A stretch of 64,000 nt of DNA, taken from NCBI GenBank assembly GCA_038065275.1, contig JBBTRH010000002.1, forward strand, positions 34,756-98,755. Reading direction: 5' to 3'. This DNA comes from Patescibacteria group bacterium. Lineage in GTDB: Bacteria; Patescibacteriota; Patescibacteriia; SBBC01; CAIJZX01. The notes beneath the pieces are model-generated. The model was not told the origin of the DNA and made no database searches. It saw nothing but the letters and a program-made list of their open reading frames with translations. A program made the translations under genes and the position numbers. Of this stretch, positions 3,879 to 58,611 are shown piece by piece (within the stretch, counting starts at the first letter, position 1; every line of letters starts with the position of its first letter).

Positions 3879-3926
3879 TCATTTTTTAGTTCCGGCCCGC
3901 AGGAGATCGACAAACAGCGGGTCTAG
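3879..3926. repeat. degenerate (~80% identical) duplicate of the pyrG 3'-proximal segment 4291-4335
   Basis: ttttttagttccggcccgcaggagatcgacaaacagcgggtctag versus gtttttagtccggcccgcaatagaccgacgaacagcggatgcggg; encodes ...PLFVDLLRAGTKK* on the minus strand versus pyrG ...PLFVGLLRAGLKTQKRST*. Confidence 0.55.
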
Positions 3927-3929
3927 GCG

Positions 3930-4199
3930 CTAGGAAACGAATATCTTTGACTCGTCGAGAATGATACCCTTGGCCTTCAGCTCGCGGATCAGGTTTTGCA
4001 TTTCCTGACGCATGGCCAGCATTTCCATAATCGCGTCAAGTTTAGCATCGACTTCGTCGAAGCGCTGGTCGGTATGTTCTCGTTCTTTACCCAGGCTTCC
4101 AGTAAAATGTCGAGCTAAGTCCGTAATCGAAGACCGGATCCGTTGCTCCGAGGCGTCGAGGTGGGTCTTAGTGATCGTTAATGATGTGCGTCGCACCAT
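3930..4199 (-). CDS. small hypothetical protein of the 'KLDAIM' family (paralog of 10355-10633)
   Basis: About 90 aa; shares ...DAKLDAIMEM... with ...INTKLDAIMSGEV... in the paralog; own TTGACA-17-TAGACT promoter at about 4205-4245. Confidence 0.5.
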   Translation of the reverse strand: MVRRTSLTITKTHLDASEQRIRSSITDLARHFTGSLGKEREHTDQRFDEVDAKLDAIMEMLAMRQEMQNLIRELKAKGIILDESKIFVS

Positions 4200-4271
4200 A
4201 ATAAAGGTATCTTTGTGGCCAGTCACCTGTTGGCCTGAGTCTAGGTTATTCTTCCTCAGTTGTCAATACGC

Positions 4272-5915
4272 TCAGGTGGATCGTTTTTGCGTTTTTAGTC
4301 CGGCCCGCAATAGACCGACGAACAGCGGATGCGGGCGAAGCGGCCGCGAGAGAAATTCAGGATGGAATTGGGTGCCGATGAACCAGGGATGATCGCGCAG
4401 TTCTAAAATTTCGACCAGCTGTCGTTTTGGTTCGAGACCGGCCACCACCATCCCCGCCCGCTCAAAGACCGACCGAAACCGGTTTTGGAATTCATAGCGG
4501 TGGCGGTGGCGTTCGTCAACCTGCCGGCGACCGTAGGCCAATGCAGTTTTCGTGTGCGACCGCAAACGGCAGGGGTACGACCCTAACCGCATCGACCCGC
4601 CGAGGTGGCGCTCTCGCACCAGCCGTTCCTGTTCGGGCATCAGGTCGATCACCGGTTTTTGCGTTTGCGGATTGACCTCGGTCGTGTTGGCGTCGCGCCA
4701 CCTAAGAACATGACGCGCGAACTCGACGGCCATCAACTGCATGCCGTAACAAAGCCCGAGGAAGGGAAGGCGGTGCGTTCGGGCGTACTTAATGACGTCG
4801 ATTTTTCCGGCCACGCCGCGCGGCCCGAATCCGCCTGGTACGATCAGCGCTTGAAAATTATCAAGTTCGCGCAATTTTTTGGGACGGCCGTCATAATCTT
4901 CGGCATTCAGCCAGGAAATCTCGACCGGCCGCCGCAATGACCAGGCGGCGTGTTTGACCGCCTCGATCACCGACAAATACGAATCGCTCAGGGTAAACGC
5001 CCCGCTGGAAAAATACTTGCCGACGATGCCAACGCGCAGTGATCTGGCTTTAGATTCAGCGCCGCGGACGAAATATTTCCAGTCGTGCAGATCGCGGCGC
5101 CGCACCGGCAGGTCAAACTTCGCTAGGATCTTTTCCGCCAAGTGTTCCCGCTCGAAGTTTAAGGGAATAGTGTAGATGTTCTTGACATCCGGAGCGGAAA
5201 TAATATCGCTCGGGTGCATGTTACAGTTGATCGACAGTTTCTCCTTGCGCGTTGTATCAAGCGATACTGCTCCGCGTCCGAGAATAAAATCGGGTTGGAT
5301 GCCGGCGGCGTTGAGCGTGCGCACGGCGTACTGCGTGGGTTTCGTCTTCATTTCCCCGAGTTGCCCGGGAATCGGCAAATAGCTTAGCAGGACGAACTGG
5401 ACCCGACCAGGCATCCGCAGGTGCATCATCCGGGCCGCTTCAAGGAATAACAGGTTCTGGTACTCACCGACCGTCCCGCCGATTTCCACCAGCTGAATGG
5501 CCGACCGATTGACCCGGGCGGCCGTGATCACCCGGCGGATGACTTCCTCGGGCACGTGCGGGACGACCTCGACGCACTTGCCGCCGTAGCCTAAGGCCCG
5601 CTCGCGCTCAATGACCGACAGGTAGACTTGGCCGGTGGTCATGTAGTCGTGACGGGTGAGCGTCACGTCCAGAAAGCGTTCATAGTTGCCGATATCCTGG
5701 TCGGTTTCCAGTCCGTCGGCGGTTACGAACACCTCGCCGTGCTCGGTCGGGTTCATGGTGCCGGCGTCAACGTTGATGTAGGGATCGATTTTCATGGCCC
5801 CCACCCGGTAGCCGCGGCTTTTGAGGAGCAGGCCCATGGACGAGACCGCGATCCCCTTCCCTAGACCCGACAGCACGCCGCCAACCACGAAGATGTAACG
5901 CGTTTTATTCGGCAT
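4272..5915 (-). CDS. pyrG: CTP synthase
   Basis: 547 aa; N-terminus MPNKTRYIFVVGGVLSGLGKGI and C-terminal glutamine amidotransferase domain. Confidence 0.95.
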   Translation of the reverse strand: MPNKTRYIFVVGGVLSGLGKGIAVSSMGLLLKSRGYRVGAMKIDPYINVDAGTMNPTEHGEVFVTADGLETDQDIGNYERFLDVTLTRHDYMTTGQVYLSVIERERALGYGGKCVEVVPHVPEEVIRRVITAARVNRSAIQLVEIGGTVGEYQNLLFLEAARMMHLRMPGRVQFVLLSYLPIPGQLGEMKTKPTQYAVRTLNAAGIQPDFILGRGAVSLDTTRKEKLSINCNMHPSDIISAPDVKNIYTIPLNFEREHLAEKILAKFDLPVRRRDLHDWKYFVRGAESKARSLRVGIVGKYFSSGAFTLSDSYLSVIEAVKHAAWSLRRPVEISWLNAEDYDGRPKKLRELDNFQALIVPGGFGPRGVAGKIDVIKYARTHRLPFLGLCYGMQLMAVEFARHVLRWRDANTTEVNPQTQKPVIDLMPEQERLVRERHLGGSMRLGSYPCRLRSHTKTALAYGRRQVDERHRHRYEFQNRFRSVFERAGMVVAGLEPKRQLVEILELRDHPWFIGTQFHPEFLSRPLRPHPLFVGLLRAGLKTQKRST

Positions 5916-10301: not shown

Positions 10302-10354
10302 TTTTCCTATTCCATTTTTCATCGACAACCCGACACTCATCAGCCCCACCGCTA

Positions 10355-10633
10355 TCAACCACACCGCGCCACCAGCGTCCGGAGCAGGCGTTGGAATTGC
10401 TTGCGCGTTACCAGCACCTCACCGCTCATGATTGCATCTAACTTGGTGTTGATGGTGCTGAATTCTTCTTTAATCAATTCGTCCTGTTTCCCCTGGCTGG
10501 CGTTGAAATGGCTGATGATTTCCCGTGTTGCTCCTTTCATTTCTTCCCGCACGCCATCGCGAAAGCCACCCAGTTCGGCCTTGAGATCGTCCCTGGTCAG
10601 GAGTTTGGCGGCAGTTCGTGAGGGTTTTGGCAT
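10355..10633 (-). CDS. small hypothetical protein of the 'KLDAIM' family (paralog of 3930-4199)
   Basis: Second Met of ORF 10355-10660; TTGACG-16-TATTCT promoter within the 40-nt gap to the upstream gene; last codons lie in a degenerate copy of the upstream gene's 3' segment. Confidence 0.5.
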   Translation of the reverse strand: MPKPSRTAAKLLTRDDLKAELGGFRDGVREEMKGATREIISHFNASQGKQDELIKEEFSTINTKLDAIMSGEVLVTRKQFQRLLRTLVARCG

Positions 10634-10674
10634 AACAATGTTGTATGAACAGAATACCATTCAGCCGGTTGACG

Positions 10675-10989
10675 TCAAGGGCTAGATTTTTTCTCTTTCC
10701 CTAACTCCGCCATCCCCCGCTTGACCACCAACCCGCCGCTGACCAATATCACCGCCGCCAACCACACCAGGCTGATATTCACCGCCCCCGACACATAGCC
10801 GGGCCGCCACGATTCGAGCCCTGACATAACCGCGAGCCCGGCGATGTTCATGGCGATGCTTATATCAAGCAAAAGAATGCTCATCTCGTGAGATGTTGAT
10901 TCGATGTTAGCTGAAGAAAAAGTCATCAGTTTTCGGGTTTTAACGGGACAATTCCATGGTAATTGTCTTAATTTCAACCGGCCGAACAT
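10675..10989 (-). CDS. small hypothetical membrane protein
   Basis: 104 aa with two hydrophobic helices; its 3'-proximal segment (about 10700-10790) is duplicated in degenerate form at about 10310-10380. Confidence 0.35.
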   Translation of the reverse strand: MFGRLKLRQLPWNCPVKTRKLMTFSSANIESTSHEMSILLLDISIAMNIAGLAVMSGLESWRPGYVSGAVNISLVWLAAVILVSGGLVVKRGMAELGKEKKSSP

Positions 10990-52233: not shown

Positions 52234-52746
52234 CTACGTCGCGGTCGGGCGGGTCAGTAACCGCTGTTCTGCCTCGTTGAGCCCCGGCCCCAGCCACCGA
52301 CTTCCCTCGCACCGCCGGGTCAGGTACGTGCCGTCGCTTTGCCGGCGGAGGTAGAGGAGATAGGGCGGCTGGTCACTGGCGAAATGAAAATCGCTCGGCC
52401 GCATCATCGGGCCGGACCGGATGACCCGGTCGTCAAGCGCATGGATGGTCACTGTCGGCATCGAGATCGCGCCTTGGTACACCTCAATCGGATTGATGAT
52501 CACCTCCGCCCCGCCCGGCCCGCCGGGGATAACCATCGCCACCCGGCCGGAGAGAATAACATCCGCCTGATTGATCCGCTCGGCGACGGTAGTTGGGCAT
52601 GGTCGGACAGTATCGGTCGCCACTGGTTCAACTTGACCGCGCGGCCACCGCCCAGCCGCCACCCAGACCACAACCGCGCCGTAAAGAAGCAACGGCATGA
52701 CCCAACGGCGGTAGTATCGGCTATCAGCGGCCATATCGTTTGGCAA
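52234..52746 (-). CDS. hypothetical secreted protein
   Basis: 170 aa ORF with N-terminal hydrophobic segment; overlaps malQ end. Confidence 0.3.
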   Translation of the reverse strand: MPNDMAADSRYYRRWVMPLLLYGAVVVWVAAGRWPRGQVEPVATDTVRPCPTTVAERINQADVILSGRVAMVIPGGPGGAEVIINPIEVYQGAISMPTVTIHALDDRVIRSGPMMRPSDFHFASDQPPYLLYLRRQSDGTYLTRRCEGSRWLGPGLNEAEQRLLTRPTAT

Positions 52747-54220
52747 GTCTGGCCAGTCGATCAGCCGACCGAGCGGTCAGTTGCCGTTCACTAAGACGCC
52801 AGGACCAGTTGCCTCGCTGACGGCCGGGCCGGTTGAGGCGCGCGCTCGAGCCGAGCCGAAGAATGTCTTGAATGGGCATTACCACCAGCCGAGCGGAAGT
52901 TTTGGCGGCCGCCTCGAGGCATTGCCAAGCCACGTCCCGAATTGGCCCGAGGTATAACCGGAGGTTTCGCCGTTCGTACTTTTTGGCCTCCTCGCGCCAC
53001 CCGCCGACGGTGGTGTTGGTATCATGGTTGGCCGTGTAGTAGACGACGTCTTCGGTCACCGCCTGCGGATGGTGCGGATTGTCCGGCAAGCCGTTCCAGC
53101 CGAAGAGCATGACCCGAATGGTCGGCAGATGGAAAGCCCGCCGCAGGGCATCCGCCCCGGTTTCTTCCGACCCCAGGTCCTCGGCAATTAGGTTGAGTTG
53201 CGGACGGCGGCGCTTGACCGCCCGCAGTAACGCCTGGCCGGGACTTGGCACCCAGCGGCCCCGCCGAGCGGTGGCGGCGCGGGCCGGAATCTGCCAGGTA
53301 TGGACCAGGCCGCGGAAGTGATCGACCCGAATGACGTCGCAACGATCATCGAGCAGTCGGAAGCGTTCGACCCACCAGCGGAATCCGGTCCGGCGATGGG
53401 CGGGCCAATTGTAGAGCGGATTTCCCCAGCGCTGGCCGTGGCGGGCGAAAGAGTCGGGTGGCACCCCGGCCACTACCGACGGCTGACCATGGCGGTCGAG
53501 GCGGAACAGTTCCGGATGCGCCCAGACATCAACGCTATCGGCGCGAACAAAGAACGGCAGATCGCCGATGATGATAATCTGTCGCTGATGCACGTACCGC
53601 CGGAGCGCCTGCCATTGTTCCGCCCATAGCCACTGAGCGTAAGCATGGAAGTCAATCTGCCGGCGCAGGTGCCGGTCGAGGTACAGCCGGGCGGTACGCG
53701 GGTGGCGCCACTTCGACTCCCATGTCCACCACGACTGTTGGTCATGGCGGTCCTTCAAGGCTTGAAAAAGGGTAAAGTTCTCCAGCCATCGCCCCTGGGC
53801 TCGTCGGAAACGGGCGAATGCCGTTTGTTGCGCCAATGAACCGCGGCGGAGAAAAAAACGGTATGAGGCGCGGACCAGCGTCCACTTGGTCCGGAATACG
53901 CGCCGATATGAAACCGAGCGTTTGGCCATGTGCCGCTCCGGCCGCTGGACCGGCAATAACTTTTGGCGACGCAGTAGCTCCGGACTGATGAATAGCCAGT
54001 TTCCGGCCTCGCTGGACGGCGAGGCGTACGGCGAGCCGGTGCTATCGGGAATACCGAAGGGTAGAATCTGCCAGGCCCGTTGTCCCGCGCGGTGCAACCA
54101 ATCGACAAAATGATAGGCGGCCGGCCCGAGATCGCCGATGCCGTCGGGCCCGGGTAGAGCGGAAATCGGCAACAGCACGCCGCTCCGGCGTTGTAATCCT
54201 GGCCTCCGACGATTCGACAT
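52724..54220 (-). CDS. malQ: 4-alpha-glucanotransferase (amylomaltase, GH77)
   Basis: Start MSNRRRPG...; GVLLPISALPGPDGIGDLG N-terminal signature and GH77 catalytic blocks. Confidence 0.85.
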   Translation of the reverse strand: MSNRRRPGLQRRSGVLLPISALPGPDGIGDLGPAAYHFVDWLHRAGQRAWQILPFGIPDSTGSPYASPSSEAGNWLFISPELLRRQKLLPVQRPERHMAKRSVSYRRVFRTKWTLVRASYRFFLRRGSLAQQTAFARFRRAQGRWLENFTLFQALKDRHDQQSWWTWESKWRHPRTARLYLDRHLRRQIDFHAYAQWLWAEQWQALRRYVHQRQIIIIGDLPFFVRADSVDVWAHPELFRLDRHGQPSVVAGVPPDSFARHGQRWGNPLYNWPAHRRTGFRWWVERFRLLDDRCDVIRVDHFRGLVHTWQIPARAATARRGRWVPSPGQALLRAVKRRRPQLNLIAEDLGSEETGADALRRAFHLPTIRVMLFGWNGLPDNPHHPQAVTEDVVYYTANHDTNTTVGGWREEAKKYERRNLRLYLGPIRDVAWQCLEAAAKTSARLVVMPIQDILRLGSSARLNRPGRQRGNWSWRLSERQLTARSADRLARLAKRYGR

Positions 54221-54224
54221 GCGT

Positions 54225-55019
54225 TTAGAACTGCTTGACCGTCTCGACGTACAGGCAAAATGGACACTCTGGCGCCGGCGCCGGCAATGACCCGTCAAGA
54301 ATATCAATCGCTTTCAGCACGTCCGGTTTGACCCGGGCGGGGTTCGTGTGGAGCGTTTTGACGGTGATTTGCATCGGAAACCCTTCGTGTAACTTCTGCC
54401 CTTCGGACGGATAAAAATATATCAAATAGCCGATGCCGCTGGGCGGTTTACGGTTCTGCTCAAGCAGGAAAGCGTAGCTGTCCAGTTGGAATTGGTAGGC
54501 CGGAATCAGTTCCCGCGTGGTCGGGTCGGAGGAAGCGGTTTTATGGTCGACCGGGGTGTACCTCCCGTCACTCTGCACCACGCATTCATCAAGTTTCCCC
54601 AGATAGCCGTACTGATCATTGATGGCGGCGAAATATTTTTCTTGAAACGGCGACTCCAGCCGACCGTCAATCTGACCGGCCACCAACGGCGGCAGGTCGG
54701 GCGTGCCGCGATAGAGATCGAAGTAGCGCTTGATGACGCTGTCGAAACGATTGGCCAATCGCGAAACGATGCCTTCCGGCCGGTAGATTTTCCGATTGAT
54801 TTGCATCCAAAAACACCGCGGACAGCGCCGCGACGTTTCAATCGCTGTGGCTGAGAGCCAGCGCTTTTTTCCTGGTGCGGGTGGGATCGGCTGAGGAACG
54901 ATATGCTTCGTACCAGTACTGACTTTAGTCCGTCGCACGGACATTTTTTTTCCAACCTTGCCCCGCGTCGAAAACAAACTTCCCTGCTCACTGACTGACG
55001 ATCGTGATCGCGGTGTCAT
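54225..55019 (-). CDS. PD-(D/E)XK nuclease family protein (Cas4/RecB-like) with two Cys-x2-Cys pairs
   Basis: CPRCFW near N-terminus, CPFCLY at C-terminus, acidic/Lys motif (KLDE ... VDHK); no CRISPR array in window. Confidence 0.55.
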   Translation of the reverse strand: MTPRSRSSVSEQGSLFSTRGKVGKKMSVRRTKVSTGTKHIVPQPIPPAPGKKRWLSATAIETSRRCPRCFWMQINRKIYRPEGIVSRLANRFDSVIKRYFDLYRGTPDLPPLVAGQIDGRLESPFQEKYFAAINDQYGYLGKLDECVVQSDGRYTPVDHKTASSDPTTRELIPAYQFQLDSYAFLLEQNRKPPSGIGYLIYFYPSEGQKLHEGFPMQITVKTLHTNPARVKPDVLKAIDILDGSLPAPAPECPFCLYVETVKQF

Positions 55020-55078
55020 AGCGAGCAGTATACCACGAACGTCAGGACTCTAGGAAGCGCACCGCCGGCCCTTAGTTC

Positions 55079-55245
55079 AGTGCCGATTCCACCGGCAAGT
55101 CGTGATGACTATGGACAGGATTCGGTTCATCAAAGGTCGGTCGGTAGTATTGGAGGTCGACATTGTGCTGGCCGAGGATCTCCTTGATGCCGTCCCGCAG
55201 TTGGCGCAGTGCGGCGTGGCGGCATATGGCTGGCAGTATACCACG
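55079..55245 (-). pseudogene. C-terminal fragment (about 50 codons) paralogous to gene 56266-56571
   Basis: Translates to ...RHAALRQLRDGIKEILGQHNVDLQYYRPTFDEPNPVHSHHDLPVESALN* versus ...RHLRDGIHEILGQHNIDIQYYRPVFDEPNPLDHNHVHKS* of the intact gene; about 70% DNA identity. Confidence 0.5.
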
Positions 55246-55323
55246 TCACCGCCCTGATAAAAAATCCACCTTCGCTCCTCGACTTTGCTCGGGGTTTCGG
55301 TGGATGAGTTCACTGACGCCTGA

Positions 55324-56178
55324 TCAGCGGATTGAACCGGAGCTGGCCCGCCGGTACAGCACCAGGCCGTCGCGAATGACTTGGGCGTAGCGACGGAGTG
55401 CGCCGGATGTTTGGAGCCGTCGCCAATCGGCGTTGTTCGGCAGGTTGGCCAGTTCAATCAACAGCGACCGCGGCACCGGATTATACACCAGCCGGGTGCG
55501 GCCGCGGAGGCGGTCGCGGTACCGCCGCAGATCGTGCGGTTGACGGAGGATAAACAGGTGCCGTCCTAAGCCGGATCGGCCATTGGCGACCGTCGGTCCG
55601 TCTTCGTCAGCGCGGAGCAAACCGGCCTGACTGAAGGCGCTGACCATGCTCACCACTAGGAGCGTATCGTACGGACCGGCCGGATAGATGATCCGCGCCC
55701 CGGCCGGACAGCCGCGACCAAGGACGTGGTCGAAGTGCAGCGACAGATACAGCACCGTGGCCGTCGAGTCGCTGGCCAATACCTGTCGGGCCCGGGCGAA
55801 ACGTTGTTCGAGCCCGGCCCGGCCACCGCGAATCGACGGCTGTCCCCAGGTCATAAAGACGTCGGCTCCGCGGGCCGGAATCGTGTCGCGACCGAAGACG
55901 GCCAGCGGCGGCCATTCCGACGGAAGCCGGTGCTGCATGGTCGTCAGTCTAACGGTGGCACCGTCAGCCGTTAACAGCGGCCGCAGTTCGCTGGCCACGC
56001 CCCAGGTGAGTTGGGCTTCGGTGATGAGTTGCTGGCCGTACCGCCGTCGCGTTCCATGGTCGTCGTTGCCGTGCCCGGGATCGATGACGACCGTCAAGCC
56101 ATCAAGACTTCCGGCCTTAGCCGGAGCACAAATAGCCAGAAACAACGCCACAACGAACAACGTCCGCATGCTCATCAC
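55324..56178 (-). CDS. putative N-acetylmuramoyl-L-alanine amidase-like secreted protein
   Basis: Signal peptide; LTVVIDPGHGNDDHGTRR resembles amidase_3 N-terminal metal-binding block; weak. Confidence 0.45.
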   Translation of the reverse strand: MMSMRTLFVVALFLAICAPAKAGSLDGLTVVIDPGHGNDDHGTRRRYGQQLITEAQLTWGVASELRPLLTADGATVRLTTMQHRLPSEWPPLAVFGRDTIPARGADVFMTWGQPSIRGGRAGLEQRFARARQVLASDSTATVLYLSLHFDHVLGRGCPAGARIIYPAGPYDTLLVVSMVSAFSQAGLLRADEDGPTVANGRSGLGRHLFILRQPHDLRRYRDRLRGRTRLVYNPVPRSLLIELANLPNNADWRRLQTSGALRRYAQVIRDGLVLYRRASSGSIR

Positions 56179-56265
56179 CCCTTTTCAGGATGTTGGGAAA
56201 GAGCGTTACATCAGATACGCTGACACTACCAGAAGATCACTACGACTGCCAGTGGAGAGTTCGCT

Positions 56266-56571
56266 TCAGGATTTGTGGACGTGATTGTGGTCGAGCGGAT
56301 TCGGTTCGTCGAAGACCGGCCGGTAGTACTGGATGTCAATGTTGTGCTGACCGAGAATTTCATGGATGCCGTCGCGAAGATGTCGGGGTATGGTCGTGAT
56401 GTACCCGCGGATCATGGCGTCCTCGTCGACCTCCGATTTTCCTTGACGGTGCGCATGAAGTTCAGCGCACTCCCGAACATCAGGATCGAGGTACTTGCGA
56501 TAGGCCGGCGGAGTGTCGGCCAATAATTCCCGTAGCTTGTCTTCCACCTCAGACGCCCAGATGATATGCAT
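56266..56571 (-). CDS. hypothetical protein (101 aa) whose 3' half is duplicated at 55079-55245
   Basis: Intact ORF; His-rich C-terminus; paralogous fragment downstream of the amidase-like gene. Confidence 0.5.
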   Translation of the reverse strand: MHIIWASEVEDKLRELLADTPPAYRKYLDPDVRECAELHAHRQGKSEVDEDAMIRGYITTIPRHLRDGIHEILGQHNIDIQYYRPVFDEPNPLDHNHVHKS

Positions 56572-56573
56572 GG

Positions 56574-57236
56574 CTAGCTGGTTAGTTCAATGGTAACGGA
56601 TTGCACCGTATCACCTACCACAAGCGCTTGGACCACGTCCATGCCGGTCGTAACTTTTCCCATAATTTGATATCGTTGTTCAAGTCCGGCGACGGATTTC
56701 ATGATAAATATTTGTGAACCGGCAGAATTTGATGCGGCCGTTTTAGCCATCGCCACTACTCCCGGATCATAGGTGCCGGTCACGGTCTCGTCAGGAATGG
56801 TATATCCTGGCCCGCCGGTACCCCACAGGTTTTGGCTGACGGTCTCGTCTTTGGTCTGCGGATCGCCCATTTGTACCACCCAGGTTTCAATCCGATGCCA
56901 ACGGATACCGTTATAAAAACCCTGCTCCGCTAAGTAAACGAAATTGCTGACCGCCAGCGGCGCCTGCGAGGCATCAAGCGTAAAAACAATGGTGCCTTTA
57001 TTGGTCACCAGGCGGGCTTGCTTATTGAGTATGCGGTCGTCCGGCAGGCGGCCAGGGAAAGAATAGGTAGGCACGGCGGTGGAGGGTTTAGTTGATAAAT
57101 TAACGTTCGCGTTTTGGTTACTATTCGACGCCGTTGGTTTAAGCTTGAAACCGGTCAGGCCAAGAATAATGGCTGTCACCACGACTAAGACGGCGATACC
57201 ACCGATGACTGTCGGACTGTTGATGGGGTTGGCCAT
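56574..57236 (-). CDS. membrane-anchored peptidyl-prolyl cis-trans isomerase (cyclophilin type)
   Basis: N-terminal TM; cyclophilin blocks (FYNGIRWHRI, QMGDPQTKD, GTGGPGYTIPDE, AGSQIFIM). Confidence 0.8.
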   Translation of the reverse strand: MANPINSPTVIGGIAVLVVVTAIILGLTGFKLKPTASNSNQNANVNLSTKPSTAVPTYSFPGRLPDDRILNKQARLVTNKGTIVFTLDASQAPLAVSNFVYLAEQGFYNGIRWHRIETWVVQMGDPQTKDETVSQNLWGTGGPGYTIPDETVTGTYDPGVVAMAKTAASNSAGSQIFIMKSVAGLEQRYQIMGKVTTGMDVVQALVVGDTVQSVTIELTS

Positions 57237-57248
57237 CTGACTGAACGA

Positions 57249-57861
57249 TTAGTTAGTAGTGAATGACGATATTATCTCCGAGACTAATTCCTCCGCGACC
57301 GCGGGCGCAATCGCCAGGACGTAGTAGGTGAATGGCGTGACGGCGCCGTTTTGGATTTCATAGACGTGACGTTCCTGATTCCACCAGGTCGGAAGGGCGA
57401 CATCCGGTTTCGCCTCGGAAACAGGTACGATGTAGGTTTGGGCCGGTTCATTGTTGAAGGTGATCGTGCGGTCGACTTCGCCGCTCACCCGGTCGGGGCG
57501 ACGGAAGGCCGCGCCGGTGTAATACTGAACGAATATTTTCGATCTTGCCAGGGTTGAACCGTCACTTGAGTTAGCCGCGTCGTAGATATTAATCGCGGTC
57601 GGTCCGGCCAGGTATTCCACTCTCCATTTGGCGGGGATCTTCATGGTGAACTCAAAGGCCGGATCCCGTTCGGGTAAATCGACGGTCGAAAAAGTCGTCA
57701 TCGGCACCGTCGTGTTTGTATTTAAATTTGCCGCTGTGTTCGATGTTGTTGTGTTCGCGGGAACAGTCGGAGCGACTGTTTTTTTCGTCGGCCAGGCGAT
57801 CCAGATTATCAGACCAGCCATGACCACGCCAACTAAGATATATGGATACTTCTGCTTCATG
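57249..57861 (-). CDS. hypothetical membrane-anchored secreted protein
   Basis: Probable start MKQKYPYILVGVVMAGLIIW (the longer ORF to 58259 would overlap the divergent gene). Confidence 0.4.
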
Positions 57862-58023
57862 GGTAGAGTATAGCGAATATCGCCGGAAAAGAGAACGGCC
57901 CCGGCCATCGACTTGACATACTCTGGCAATAAGGAGAAGATGCGCCCGTCTGTTGCGTTGTCCTCGCTCCTTTCCCACCTTTCTGCTGTTAATAGCATCA
58001 TCTCTCGTACTACAGGAGGCACG

Positions 58024-58611
58024 ATGGATCTCCGTACCCTCAACGAACCGGAACGTTTCAGCGTCATCAACGGCATGGTCAACCGCCAGAAAGCCCTCTG
58101 GACCCTGTGCCTGATCTGTCTGATCCTGTTCCTCGGCCTGGGGCTGTGGAACTGGAACATCGAGCGGAGGGCCTCCCGGGACCGCTTGGCCGCTACCGCT
58201 GTCACCGCCAACCACCAGGCGTCCATCGTCGGTCTGCGCCTCGCGGTGCGGAACACCATCGACAGGACGGACCGTCAACAGCGGACTATCGATTCGCTGA
58301 ACACTGATCTCCGCACCGCGCGTTCCTTCGCCGCCGTACAGGTGCGGGCGATCCAAACGCTAGCCACGCGACTGGACCGGACCAATCGCGATCTTGATGA
58401 GGTCATTGCCTCCGACCAGGACAACGTCGAGTGGCTGAACGAGCAGGACCTGGAGCTGACCGTCTTTCGACCGTTGCCCGCTCAGTTCGATTCGCTTCGT
58501 CGGGCGACCGTCGTGGCCGACAGCACCCTGAACGCCCGGCAGAGAATCCTCGAGACGCGGCTGAAGGTTCTGCTCGAACCGAAGCACCGCCATCGCTGGT
58601 GGCTGTGGTAA
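58024..58611 (+). CDS. hypothetical membrane protein with coiled-coil region
   Basis: GGAGG 5 nt before ATG at 58024; TM helix then Arg/Leu-rich coiled coil. Confidence 0.45.
   Translation: MDLRTLNEPERFSVINGMVNRQKALWTLCLICLILFLGLGLWNWNIERRASRDRLAATAVTANHQASIVGLRLAVRNTIDRTDRQQRTIDSLNTDLRTARSFAAVQVRAIQTLATRLDRTNRDLDEVIASDQDNVEWLNEQDLELTVFRPLPAQFDSLRRATVVADSTLNARQRILETRLKVLLEPKHRHRWWLW

Follow-up and report, generated by a model that had tools for sequence, protein, structure and literature searches.

A diverged gene 3' end behind a cell-wall amidase gene in a groundwater Patescibacteria genome as a probable recombination scar

Organization of the locus

We analysed a 64-kb stretch of DNA (hereafter the window; contig JBBTRH010000002.1, from a Patescibacteria group bacterium), in which the 3' half of a small gene, here called A, recurs in diverged form downstream of a gene for a predicted cell-wall amidase, here called X. 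The minus strand carries all genes of the region, in the order peptidyl-prolyl isomerase (PPIase), A, X, B and GH77, and the second copy of the A 3' half, here called the remnant, stands between X and B (Table 1). An initial annotation, made from the letters of the window, had read this arrangement as an amidase gene inserted 3' of A together with a duplicated A 3' region.

Gene A is a putative member of DUF2621, a family label that carries no function, and passes the gathering threshold of the family marginally. The 32 homologues of A that were found are 95-117 aa long; the exact A protein is on record from a Patescibacteria metagenome-assembled genome, and its relatives are annotated as Candidatus Kerfeldbacteria. 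The samples with A-bearing contigs are Hainich groundwater metagenomes.

Table 1. Features of the amidase locus, in the order in which the genes are read
Feature	Position	Strand	Basis
Cyclophilin-type PPIase gene, conserved upstream neighbour	56574-57236	minus	Pfam Pro_isomerase, E = 1.7e-29
Gene A, intact, 101 aa, DUF2621 (PF11084)	56266-56571	minus	Pfam, 29 bits against a cut-off of 27.7
First repeat copy, codons 65-97 of A, homologous to the remnant	56281-56379	minus	74/99 nt, 25/33 aa, dN/dS 0.09
Gene X, Amidase_3 (PF01520), N-acetylmuramoyl-L-alanine amidase-like	55324-56178	minus	Pfam, 50.6 bits against 27
P1, truncated copy of the B promoter-like extended -10 box, ATG and first ~11 codons of S2-type B	55201-55245	minus	Repeat search
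Junction, CTGCGGG (at least GCGGG) common to the B-start and mid-A parents	55194-55200	minus	Alignment of S1 and S2 strain types; A-family codons 61-67
Remnant, codons 65 to end of a diverged DUF2621 gene	55072-55200	minus	Repeat and frame comparison
Spacer, 52 nt, with P2, the working copy of the B promoter-like box	55020-55071	minus	Repeat and relatives
Gene B, intact, 264 aa, PD-(D/E)XK nuclease family	54225-55019	minus	Pfam PDDEXK_1
GH77 4-alpha-glucanotransferase gene	52724-54307	minus	Longest open reading frame (ORF), TTG start at 54307

Extent and divergence of the remnant

A repeat search of the window returned an ungapped 106-nt direct repeat that pairs 55101-55206 with 56280-56385, inside A, at 75% identity. 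This repeat is real and far beyond chance, because the 106-mer matches the A gene at 79 of 106 positions and its best ungapped match elsewhere in the 64 kb, on either strand, reaches only 49/106. The initial annotation was right, then, that the 3' half of A recurs after the amidase-like gene, and right also that the second copy retains its own stop. Its extent has to be redrawn, from 50 codons at 55245-55079 to 42 codons plus TAA (55074-55072), as the homology begins at A codon 65 (LRDG), position 55200. In the frame of A the remnant reads LRDGIKEILGQHNVDLQYYRPTFDEPNPVHSHHDLPVESALN up to this stop, and the C-terminus of the intact A protein reads LRDGIHEILGQHNIDIQYYRPVFDEPNPLDHNHVHKS. The A frame offers no ATG, GTG or TTG after the upstream TGA and ahead of the homology, and no ORF is listed in that frame.

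The remnant and A share 74 of 99 nucleotides and 25 of 33 amino acids over their aligned codons. Of the codons that differ, 11 do so synonymously and 8 non-synonymously, and third codon positions account for 15 of the 25 base differences. The corresponding rates are dN 0.155 and dS ~1.75, giving a dN/dS of 0.09. Because the differences are mostly synonymous at this low ratio, both copies must have diverged as working genes in separate lineages; the remnant therefore derives from the working gene of another lineage and not from a local duplication, and its dN/dS, at such a dS, suggests that it has been decaying only for a short time. Among the sampled homologues every one matches the remnant at 18-26 of 33 amino acids, the nearest at 25-26 and none closely, and the inner group of relatives matches it at 69-75 of 99 nucleotides. 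The source lineage is unsampled.

A diversity-generating retroelement, with its variable and template repeats, was also considered for the pair of repeats and rejected: the 27 mismatches are not adenine-specific (remnant bases C8, G7, A6, T6) and lie mostly in third codon positions, and Pfam finds no reverse transcriptase among the adjacent genes.

A copied start of gene B and the junction

The 45 nucleotides at 55245-55201, which had been taken as derived from A, are instead a copy of the promoter-like box and first ~11 codons of gene B. This copy, P1, carries the box TGGTATACT at 55243-55235 and an ATG at 55225-55223, and its codons read MPPRRTAPTAG in the window. It was recognized through a 20-nt repeat of 85% identity between 55226-55245 and 55018-55037 (CGTGGTATACTGCCAGCCAT and CGTGGTATACTGCTCGCTAT on the gene strand), the downstream copy of which directly precedes the ATG of B. 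The box occurs at just two sites in the 64 kb, where 0.11 would be expected; the second, P2, lies at 55035-55027, 7 nt before the B ATG, in the spacer that separates the remnant from B. Both the length of this spacer and the position of the box agree with those in relatives without the amidase gene, and a TGnTATAMT box is present 6-9 nt 5' of the B ATG in 8 of the 9 lineages examined (the window, at 55027-55035, and L002, L006, L010, L014, L020, L021 and L022 at corresponding sites). No ribosome-binding site is visible ahead of B. The position of the box suggests a B-specific extended -10 element and a leaderless B mRNA.

At its downstream end the B start of P1 is fused out of frame to the middle of A. 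The ATG at 55225 opens a 31-codon out-of-frame ORF that ends at 55130. The junction sits within ~16 nt of fortuitous similarity between B and A (GCGCCAnCnnCGGGnC), where B codons 7-12 resemble A codons 61-67. Since the remnant is bounded on its 5' side by a truncated copy of the B promoter and start, the duplicated unit is the A 3' half, spacer and B start taken together, and not a target duplication around the amidase gene.

Alleles with and without the remnant in near-identical strains

Contigs encoding an identical A protein sort into two types: S1, which carries the remnant (the window, L003 and L012), and S2, in which A, X and B follow one another without it (L001 and L002). L003 and L012 match the window throughout, with 3 mismatches in 3955 nt for L003. 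The S2 contigs are ~99% identical to the window over the flanks, and L002 is identical to it from 57712 to 55234, that is, over PPIase, A and X. S2 remains collinear with the window to 55194, has ~92 nt in place of the window's 304 nt, and aligns again at 54890. At the point of divergence S2 continues through GACGTGGTATACTGTCACCATATGCCGTCACGCCGCACTGCGCCAACCGCGGGTCAAAGC, which opens an intact B gene (MPSRRTAPTAGQSRLF...). Of this the window has just ATGCCGCCACGCCGCACTGCGCCAACTGCGGG, after which it passes into ACGGCATCAAGGAG..., which is A from codon 65 onward, out of the B-start frame. The sequence GACGTGGTATACTGTCACCATATGCCGTCACGCCGCACTGCGCCAACCGC is the promoter and start of intact B both in S2 and in a separate lineage, L020, whose X protein is 87% identical to that of the window, and B of this amidase-bearing parent type starts MPSRRTAPTAG.

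Over 57712-54573 all differences between the window and L002 fall within 55233-54846, and L001 adds single differences at 55891 and 55885. The tract thus includes the first ~58 codons of the window's B gene (55019-54846), where the N-terminal regions of the two types agree at only 79 of 167 nucleotides; the differences end at 54846, in the conserved core of B, and the next 274 nt match at 273 positions. In sum, the window has ~355 nt where S2 has ~143 nt (B codons ~12-58), and is on balance ~212 nt longer. From 54295 to 51053 the window and the S2 strains are identical.

All of these sequences are metagenome assemblies of one aquifer system that holds both alleles, which invites the explanation that the junction is an assembly chimera of two co-occurring strains. 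The junction recurs, however, in the window, in ENA ERZ1292631 and in Logan ERR3858126, three assemblies that differ in their samples and assemblers, and the 5-7 nt that its parents have in common at the join are too few to cause a k-mer mis-join. An assembly artefact is accordingly very unlikely, and the least credible of the explanations considered here. The join of a B start to the middle of A does have the topology expected from a tandem duplication, in one genome, of the interval from the A 3' half to the B start, followed by divergence and loss of the second amidase copy. Yet a dead copy at this dS should neither look purified nor keep an open frame and stop, the polymorphism splits strains that are otherwise ~99-100% identical, and the arrangement is found in no relative, all of which makes such a duplication barely credible.

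The remaining mismatches between the window and L001/L002 are clustered at 57713-58395, 54572-54555 and 54428-54345, with ~60 mismatches in 680 nt of a hypothetical 336-aa gene, 21 in 84 nt inside B, and long identical stretches between. These clusters look like mosaic recombination tracts among co-occurring strains. In the patches within the body of B, relatives are no nearer to the S1 version than to the S2 version.

The amidase gene and the slot it occupies among relatives

The X product is a predicted amidase that covers positions 1-172 of the 174 in the PF01520 profile above the gathering threshold, in agreement with the initial description of a cell-wall hydrolase-like cargo. Its gene begins at a GTG at 56178 or an ATG at 56169, of which the latter is the likely start, and its N-terminus has a signal-peptide-like segment. 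Only 8 homologues of X were found. Base composition, proposed earlier as a check, is uninformative on foreign origin: the GC content of X is high (0.65, z = 1.5, third highest of 55 genes; 0.74 at third codon positions (GC3), z = 1.0), yet core genes, GH77 at 0.63 among them, span the same range. A phage origin was rejected, the matches being just a 31%-identity partial match in one viral contig and a weak endolysin PHROG match (E = 7e-4).

Across relatives, the interval between A and B is variable. In seven lineages (L006, L010/L013, L014, L016, L018, L019 and L024) A is followed directly by B in the order PPIase-A-B-GH77, with no amidase gene. An Amidase_3 gene lies between A and B, or after A at a contig end, in L020, L021, L025, L022, L029 and L015, with X proteins 87%, 57%, 53%, 51%, 34% and 30% identical, respectively, to that of the window. 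L022 has no DUF2621 gene, and ~200 nt (936-1138) lie there between the PPIase and amidase genes. In L017 the slot (about 4300-4850) holds a gene for a VIT1-family membrane protein (Pfam E = 5e-26) and not an amidase. The slot therefore contains Amidase_3 in ~7 lineages, VIT1 in one and nothing in seven. Because the amidases found there have diverged down to 30% identity, occupancy of the slot is old. The identities of A and X are also discordant, with A at 88% and X at 34% in L029 and A at 83% and X at 87% in L020. A sliding comparison places the window nearer to L021 in the A 3' end, in the spacer and at the very beginning of X; from ~56040 on, through the body of X and P1, L020 is the nearer of the two, at 87-98% per 60 nt. 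X is thus an accessory gene in a long-standing variable slot 3' of A that has repeatedly recombined.

The distribution of the remnant is quite different. In the amidase-bearing loci for which the interval from X to B is available (L020, L022, L029, L015 and S2), that interval holds no A remnant, and none of the relatives examined has a second copy of A. The latter result bears out the earlier view that the remnant is not a split second paralog. S2, L020, L029, L022 and L015 carry the amidase gene without the remnant, which contradicts the idea that the two arose together; judged from this distribution, the amidase has occupied the slot far longer than the remnant, which is a strain-level polymorphism. 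What stands of the initial interpretation is an accessory gene situated 3' of A, and what falls is the remnant as its insertion footprint. From the remnant through the 52-nt spacer and the TGGTATACT box to B, the window is collinear with L006, L010 and L014, among other relatives that lack the amidase; in these three the box lies 6-9 nt before the B ATG, and the window's B N-terminal region matches that of the amidase-less L010/L011 at 92 of 161 nucleotides, against 78 of 161 for the S2 version.

Direct repeats do flank X, and its distribution among relatives is patchy, so that one may ask whether X is a small mobile cassette, site-specific or transposon-like, that targets the 3' half of DUF2621 genes and leaves the repeats as target duplication or attachment (att) sites. 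We consider this quite improbable. The repeats (106-129 nt) are 75% identical with a longest exact run of 11 nt, a fragment of B parts X from the downstream repeat, there are no terminal inverted repeats around X, and the neighbours (PPIase, DUF2621, PD-(D/E)XK nuclease and GH77, by Pfam) include no transposase or integrase. Five amidase-bearing versions of the locus are without any repeat, none of the 8 X homologues shows a conserved-end insertion at the same position in A, and there is no viral link beyond the weak endolysin-domain match. Two specific forms of mobile element were rejected as well: a transposon, insertion sequence or miniature inverted-repeat transposable element, in that there is no short identical target duplication, terminal inverted repeat or transposase among the neighbours, and a site-specific integrative element, in that Amidase_3 is the sole gene between the repeats and no identical core exceeds 11 nt.

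Probable recombination between two alleles of the locus

The remnant is, then, most likely not a footprint of amidase insertion. We favour the explanation, to which we assign a probability of about 60%, that it is the scar of recombination between an amidase-bearing and an amidase-less allele of one locus (PPIase, A, variable slot, B, GH77), with one homologous and one illegitimate end, as in homology-facilitated illegitimate recombination (HFIR). The locus as a whole is recombinogenic, given that the window is a mosaic with respect to L020 and L021, that the A and X identities are discordant, and that the contents of the slot vary.

Such an event would have taken place in a groundwater population of Kerfeldbacteria-like Patescibacteria, between one parent with A, X and B and a second with a diverged A and, immediately after it, a B gene whose 5' end differs. 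At one end, ordinary homologous recombination would have been anchored in the conserved B core near 54846; at the other, an illegitimate join at 5-7 nt of microhomology would have fused B at codon ~11, out of frame, to A at codon 65. In the likelier polarity, an S2-like, amidase-bearing genome would have taken up ~355 nt from an amidase-less relative, comprising the A 3' half, the 52-nt spacer, the B promoter and B codons 1-58, in exchange for ~143 nt of resident B 5' sequence. The donor allele would have had a DUF2621 gene ending ...PNPVHSHHDLPVESALN, followed by the 52-nt spacer and ATGACACCGCGATCACG. Besides intact A, X and B, the product would contain a dead piece of A and a spare promoter of B, which would drive at most the 31-codon out-of-frame ORF; the scar as such is probably neutral.

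Three of the features that characterize HFIR are recognizable at the locus. One border lies in homology, where the differences stop at 54846 and the run of 273/274 follows; the other is an out-of-frame microhomology join at GCGGG/CTGCGGG; and the insertion of ~355 nt is coupled to a deletion of ~143 nt. A fourth feature, an identifiable donor, is missing, as no sampled DUF2621 gene matches the remnant above 26/33 amino acids or 75/99 nucleotides. We infer that the incoming DNA was linear and was taken up by a competent cell.

We regard it as likelier that the remnant and the B 5' end came in and that the amidase gene was already resident, because a single event then suffices and because L020 shows X, P1 and S2-type B as a vertically inherited block. 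The mirror event would start from an amidase-less genome that received the interval from A through X to the B start, with a homologous upstream end in PPIase or the A 5' half and an illegitimate right end inside the resident A. The amidase gene would then be the cargo, the intact A would have come along with it, and the remnant would be the recipient's own A 3' half. This polarity is supported by the fact that relatives most often have B directly behind A, by the collinearity of the window's remnant, spacer and B with that order, and by a window B N-terminus that is nearer to the amidase-less L010/L011 than S2's is; both KLDAIM loci described below, moreover, show the order gene, extra gene, diverged 3' remnant. 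Against it, S2 has identical PPIase-A-X and downstream DNA without the remnant, so that a second event would be needed to make S2, and in the separate lineage L020 X, P1 and S2-type B form a single orthologous block, which is probably native to the window's sub-clade. On balance we hold the mirror event to be somewhat unlikely.

Several observations weigh against recombination in an S2-like recipient as we have set it out. The proposed donor, a full-length A ending ...VHSHHDLPVESALN beside a window-type B start, is absent from the 32 cluster representatives and 14 further members, an exact 20-mer scan of JGI metagenomes for it gave 0 matches, and profile scans of metagenome and genome contigs, which returned only 3 and 7 loci, contained no donor tail. 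The mirror event, by moving A, X and the B start into an amidase-less genome, would yield the same structure. Just left of the junction the window differs from S2 and L020 at three positions (55233, 55230 and 55219), in a region otherwise identical over 2.5 kb, which a single recent event in an S2 background would not predict. These differences suggest that the scar allele is older, that it formed in a slightly different background and that it was later passed between strains by homologous recombination. Finally, natural transformation in this bacterium is assumed.

Relation to known systems and implications

HFIR has been demonstrated in natural transformation of Acinetobacter baylyi, Streptococcus pneumoniae and Pseudomonas stutzeri, where one end is joined by homology and the other illegitimately and the insertion is accompanied by a deletion (reviewed in PMC3240628). 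The locus described here resembles these cases in its one homologous end, its other end at short microhomology, the coupled deletion and a tract of a few hundred nucleotides. It differs in that the process is inferred from natural strain variation in an uncultivated bacterium of the Candidate Phyla Radiation (CPR), with an unsampled donor and assumed uptake, and in that the foreign DNA is here a diverged allele of the same locus and not unrelated DNA.

A second likeness is to type VI secretion system (T6SS), Rhs and contact-dependent inhibition (CDI) loci, at which HFIR-like displacement has been proposed as the source of orphaned 3' gene fragments and immunity-gene arrays (Kirchberger et al. 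2017, PMC5361080). Those loci share with ours a constant 5' anchor, a swapped downstream module and displaced 3' ends left as diverged direct repeats. Ours, in contrast, has no toxin-immunity pair or array and only a single scar; its swapped module is a secreted-type amidase, with VIT1 or nothing at all as the alternatives, and the displaced piece comes from a DUF2621 gene. Integrative elements that insert into gene 3' ends, bounded by attL and attR, also leave an intact gene, a cargo and a displaced 3'-end copy. In the present locus, however, there is no integrase or identical core, the cargo is a single gene, and a B fragment lies between the cargo and the displaced copy.

To our knowledge, clear natural examples of one-sided-homology recombination of the HFIR type are uncommon. 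In the present case a single aquifer population contains the scar and scar-free alleles, and the junction can be followed base by base. The mechanism itself is already known, and current understanding of it is unchanged by the amidase-locus scar; the natural example is new and well resolved and otherwise ordinary. If recombination of this type made the scar, an uncultivated CPR bacterium swaps short tracts with relatives that are only ~75% identical. Accessory genes such as the cell-wall amidase occupy slots between conserved anchors. For annotation, a gene 3' half duplicated after an extra gene should be read as a recombination scar and not as proof that the intervening gene is mobile.

Flanking genes and other features of the window

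The PPIase stop codon is separated from the ATG of A by 2 nt, and the synteny of PPIase is kept in all relatives. At the other end of the region, the longest GH77 ORF overlaps the end of B by ~80 nt (54225-54307); database gene calls have 498 aa and a later start, so that the overlap probably arises only because the longest ORF was taken. No terminator-like sites were found on the minus strand of the region.

Two further loci in the window, at 3884-4337 and 10326-10768, contain genes of ~100 aa on the minus strand (3930-4226 and 10355-10660), which we refer to as KLDAIM genes. They are paralogs with 34% identity and fall in no Pfam family. Behind each, the upstream gene's 3' end recurs in diverged form: at one locus it is the end of pyrG (46 nt, 76%, the copy reading ...DPLFVDLLRAGTKK to the stop), at the other the end of a gene for a 104-aa membrane protein (40 nt, 73%). 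The initial annotation had likened the amidase locus to these two, and the gross pattern is indeed present at all three. The KLDAIM loci may be further one-sided recombination scars; a search for strain variants without the KLDAIM insertions, by way of the neighbouring L27 gene, returned only same-type contigs.

A broader reading, which we offer tentatively and think doubtful, is that the slot between A and B is a dedicated exchange site of Kerfeldbacteria-like CPR bacteria for secreted cell-wall amidase variants and other cargo, VIT1 for one, anchored by the A 3' half and the B core, and that the three scars in 64 kb point to one-sided-homology recombination of transformed DNA as a principal way in which reduced, probably episymbiotic genomes gain genes and turn over alleles. 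Were this so, the fast-evolving amidase would be a candidate determinant of host interaction.

Elsewhere in the window, a block of ~21 kb (16776-38087) has gene GC of 0.42-0.51 and GC3 of 0.40-0.56, against 0.55-0.66 in the rest of the window. This low-GC block may be a horizontally acquired or functionally distinct island.

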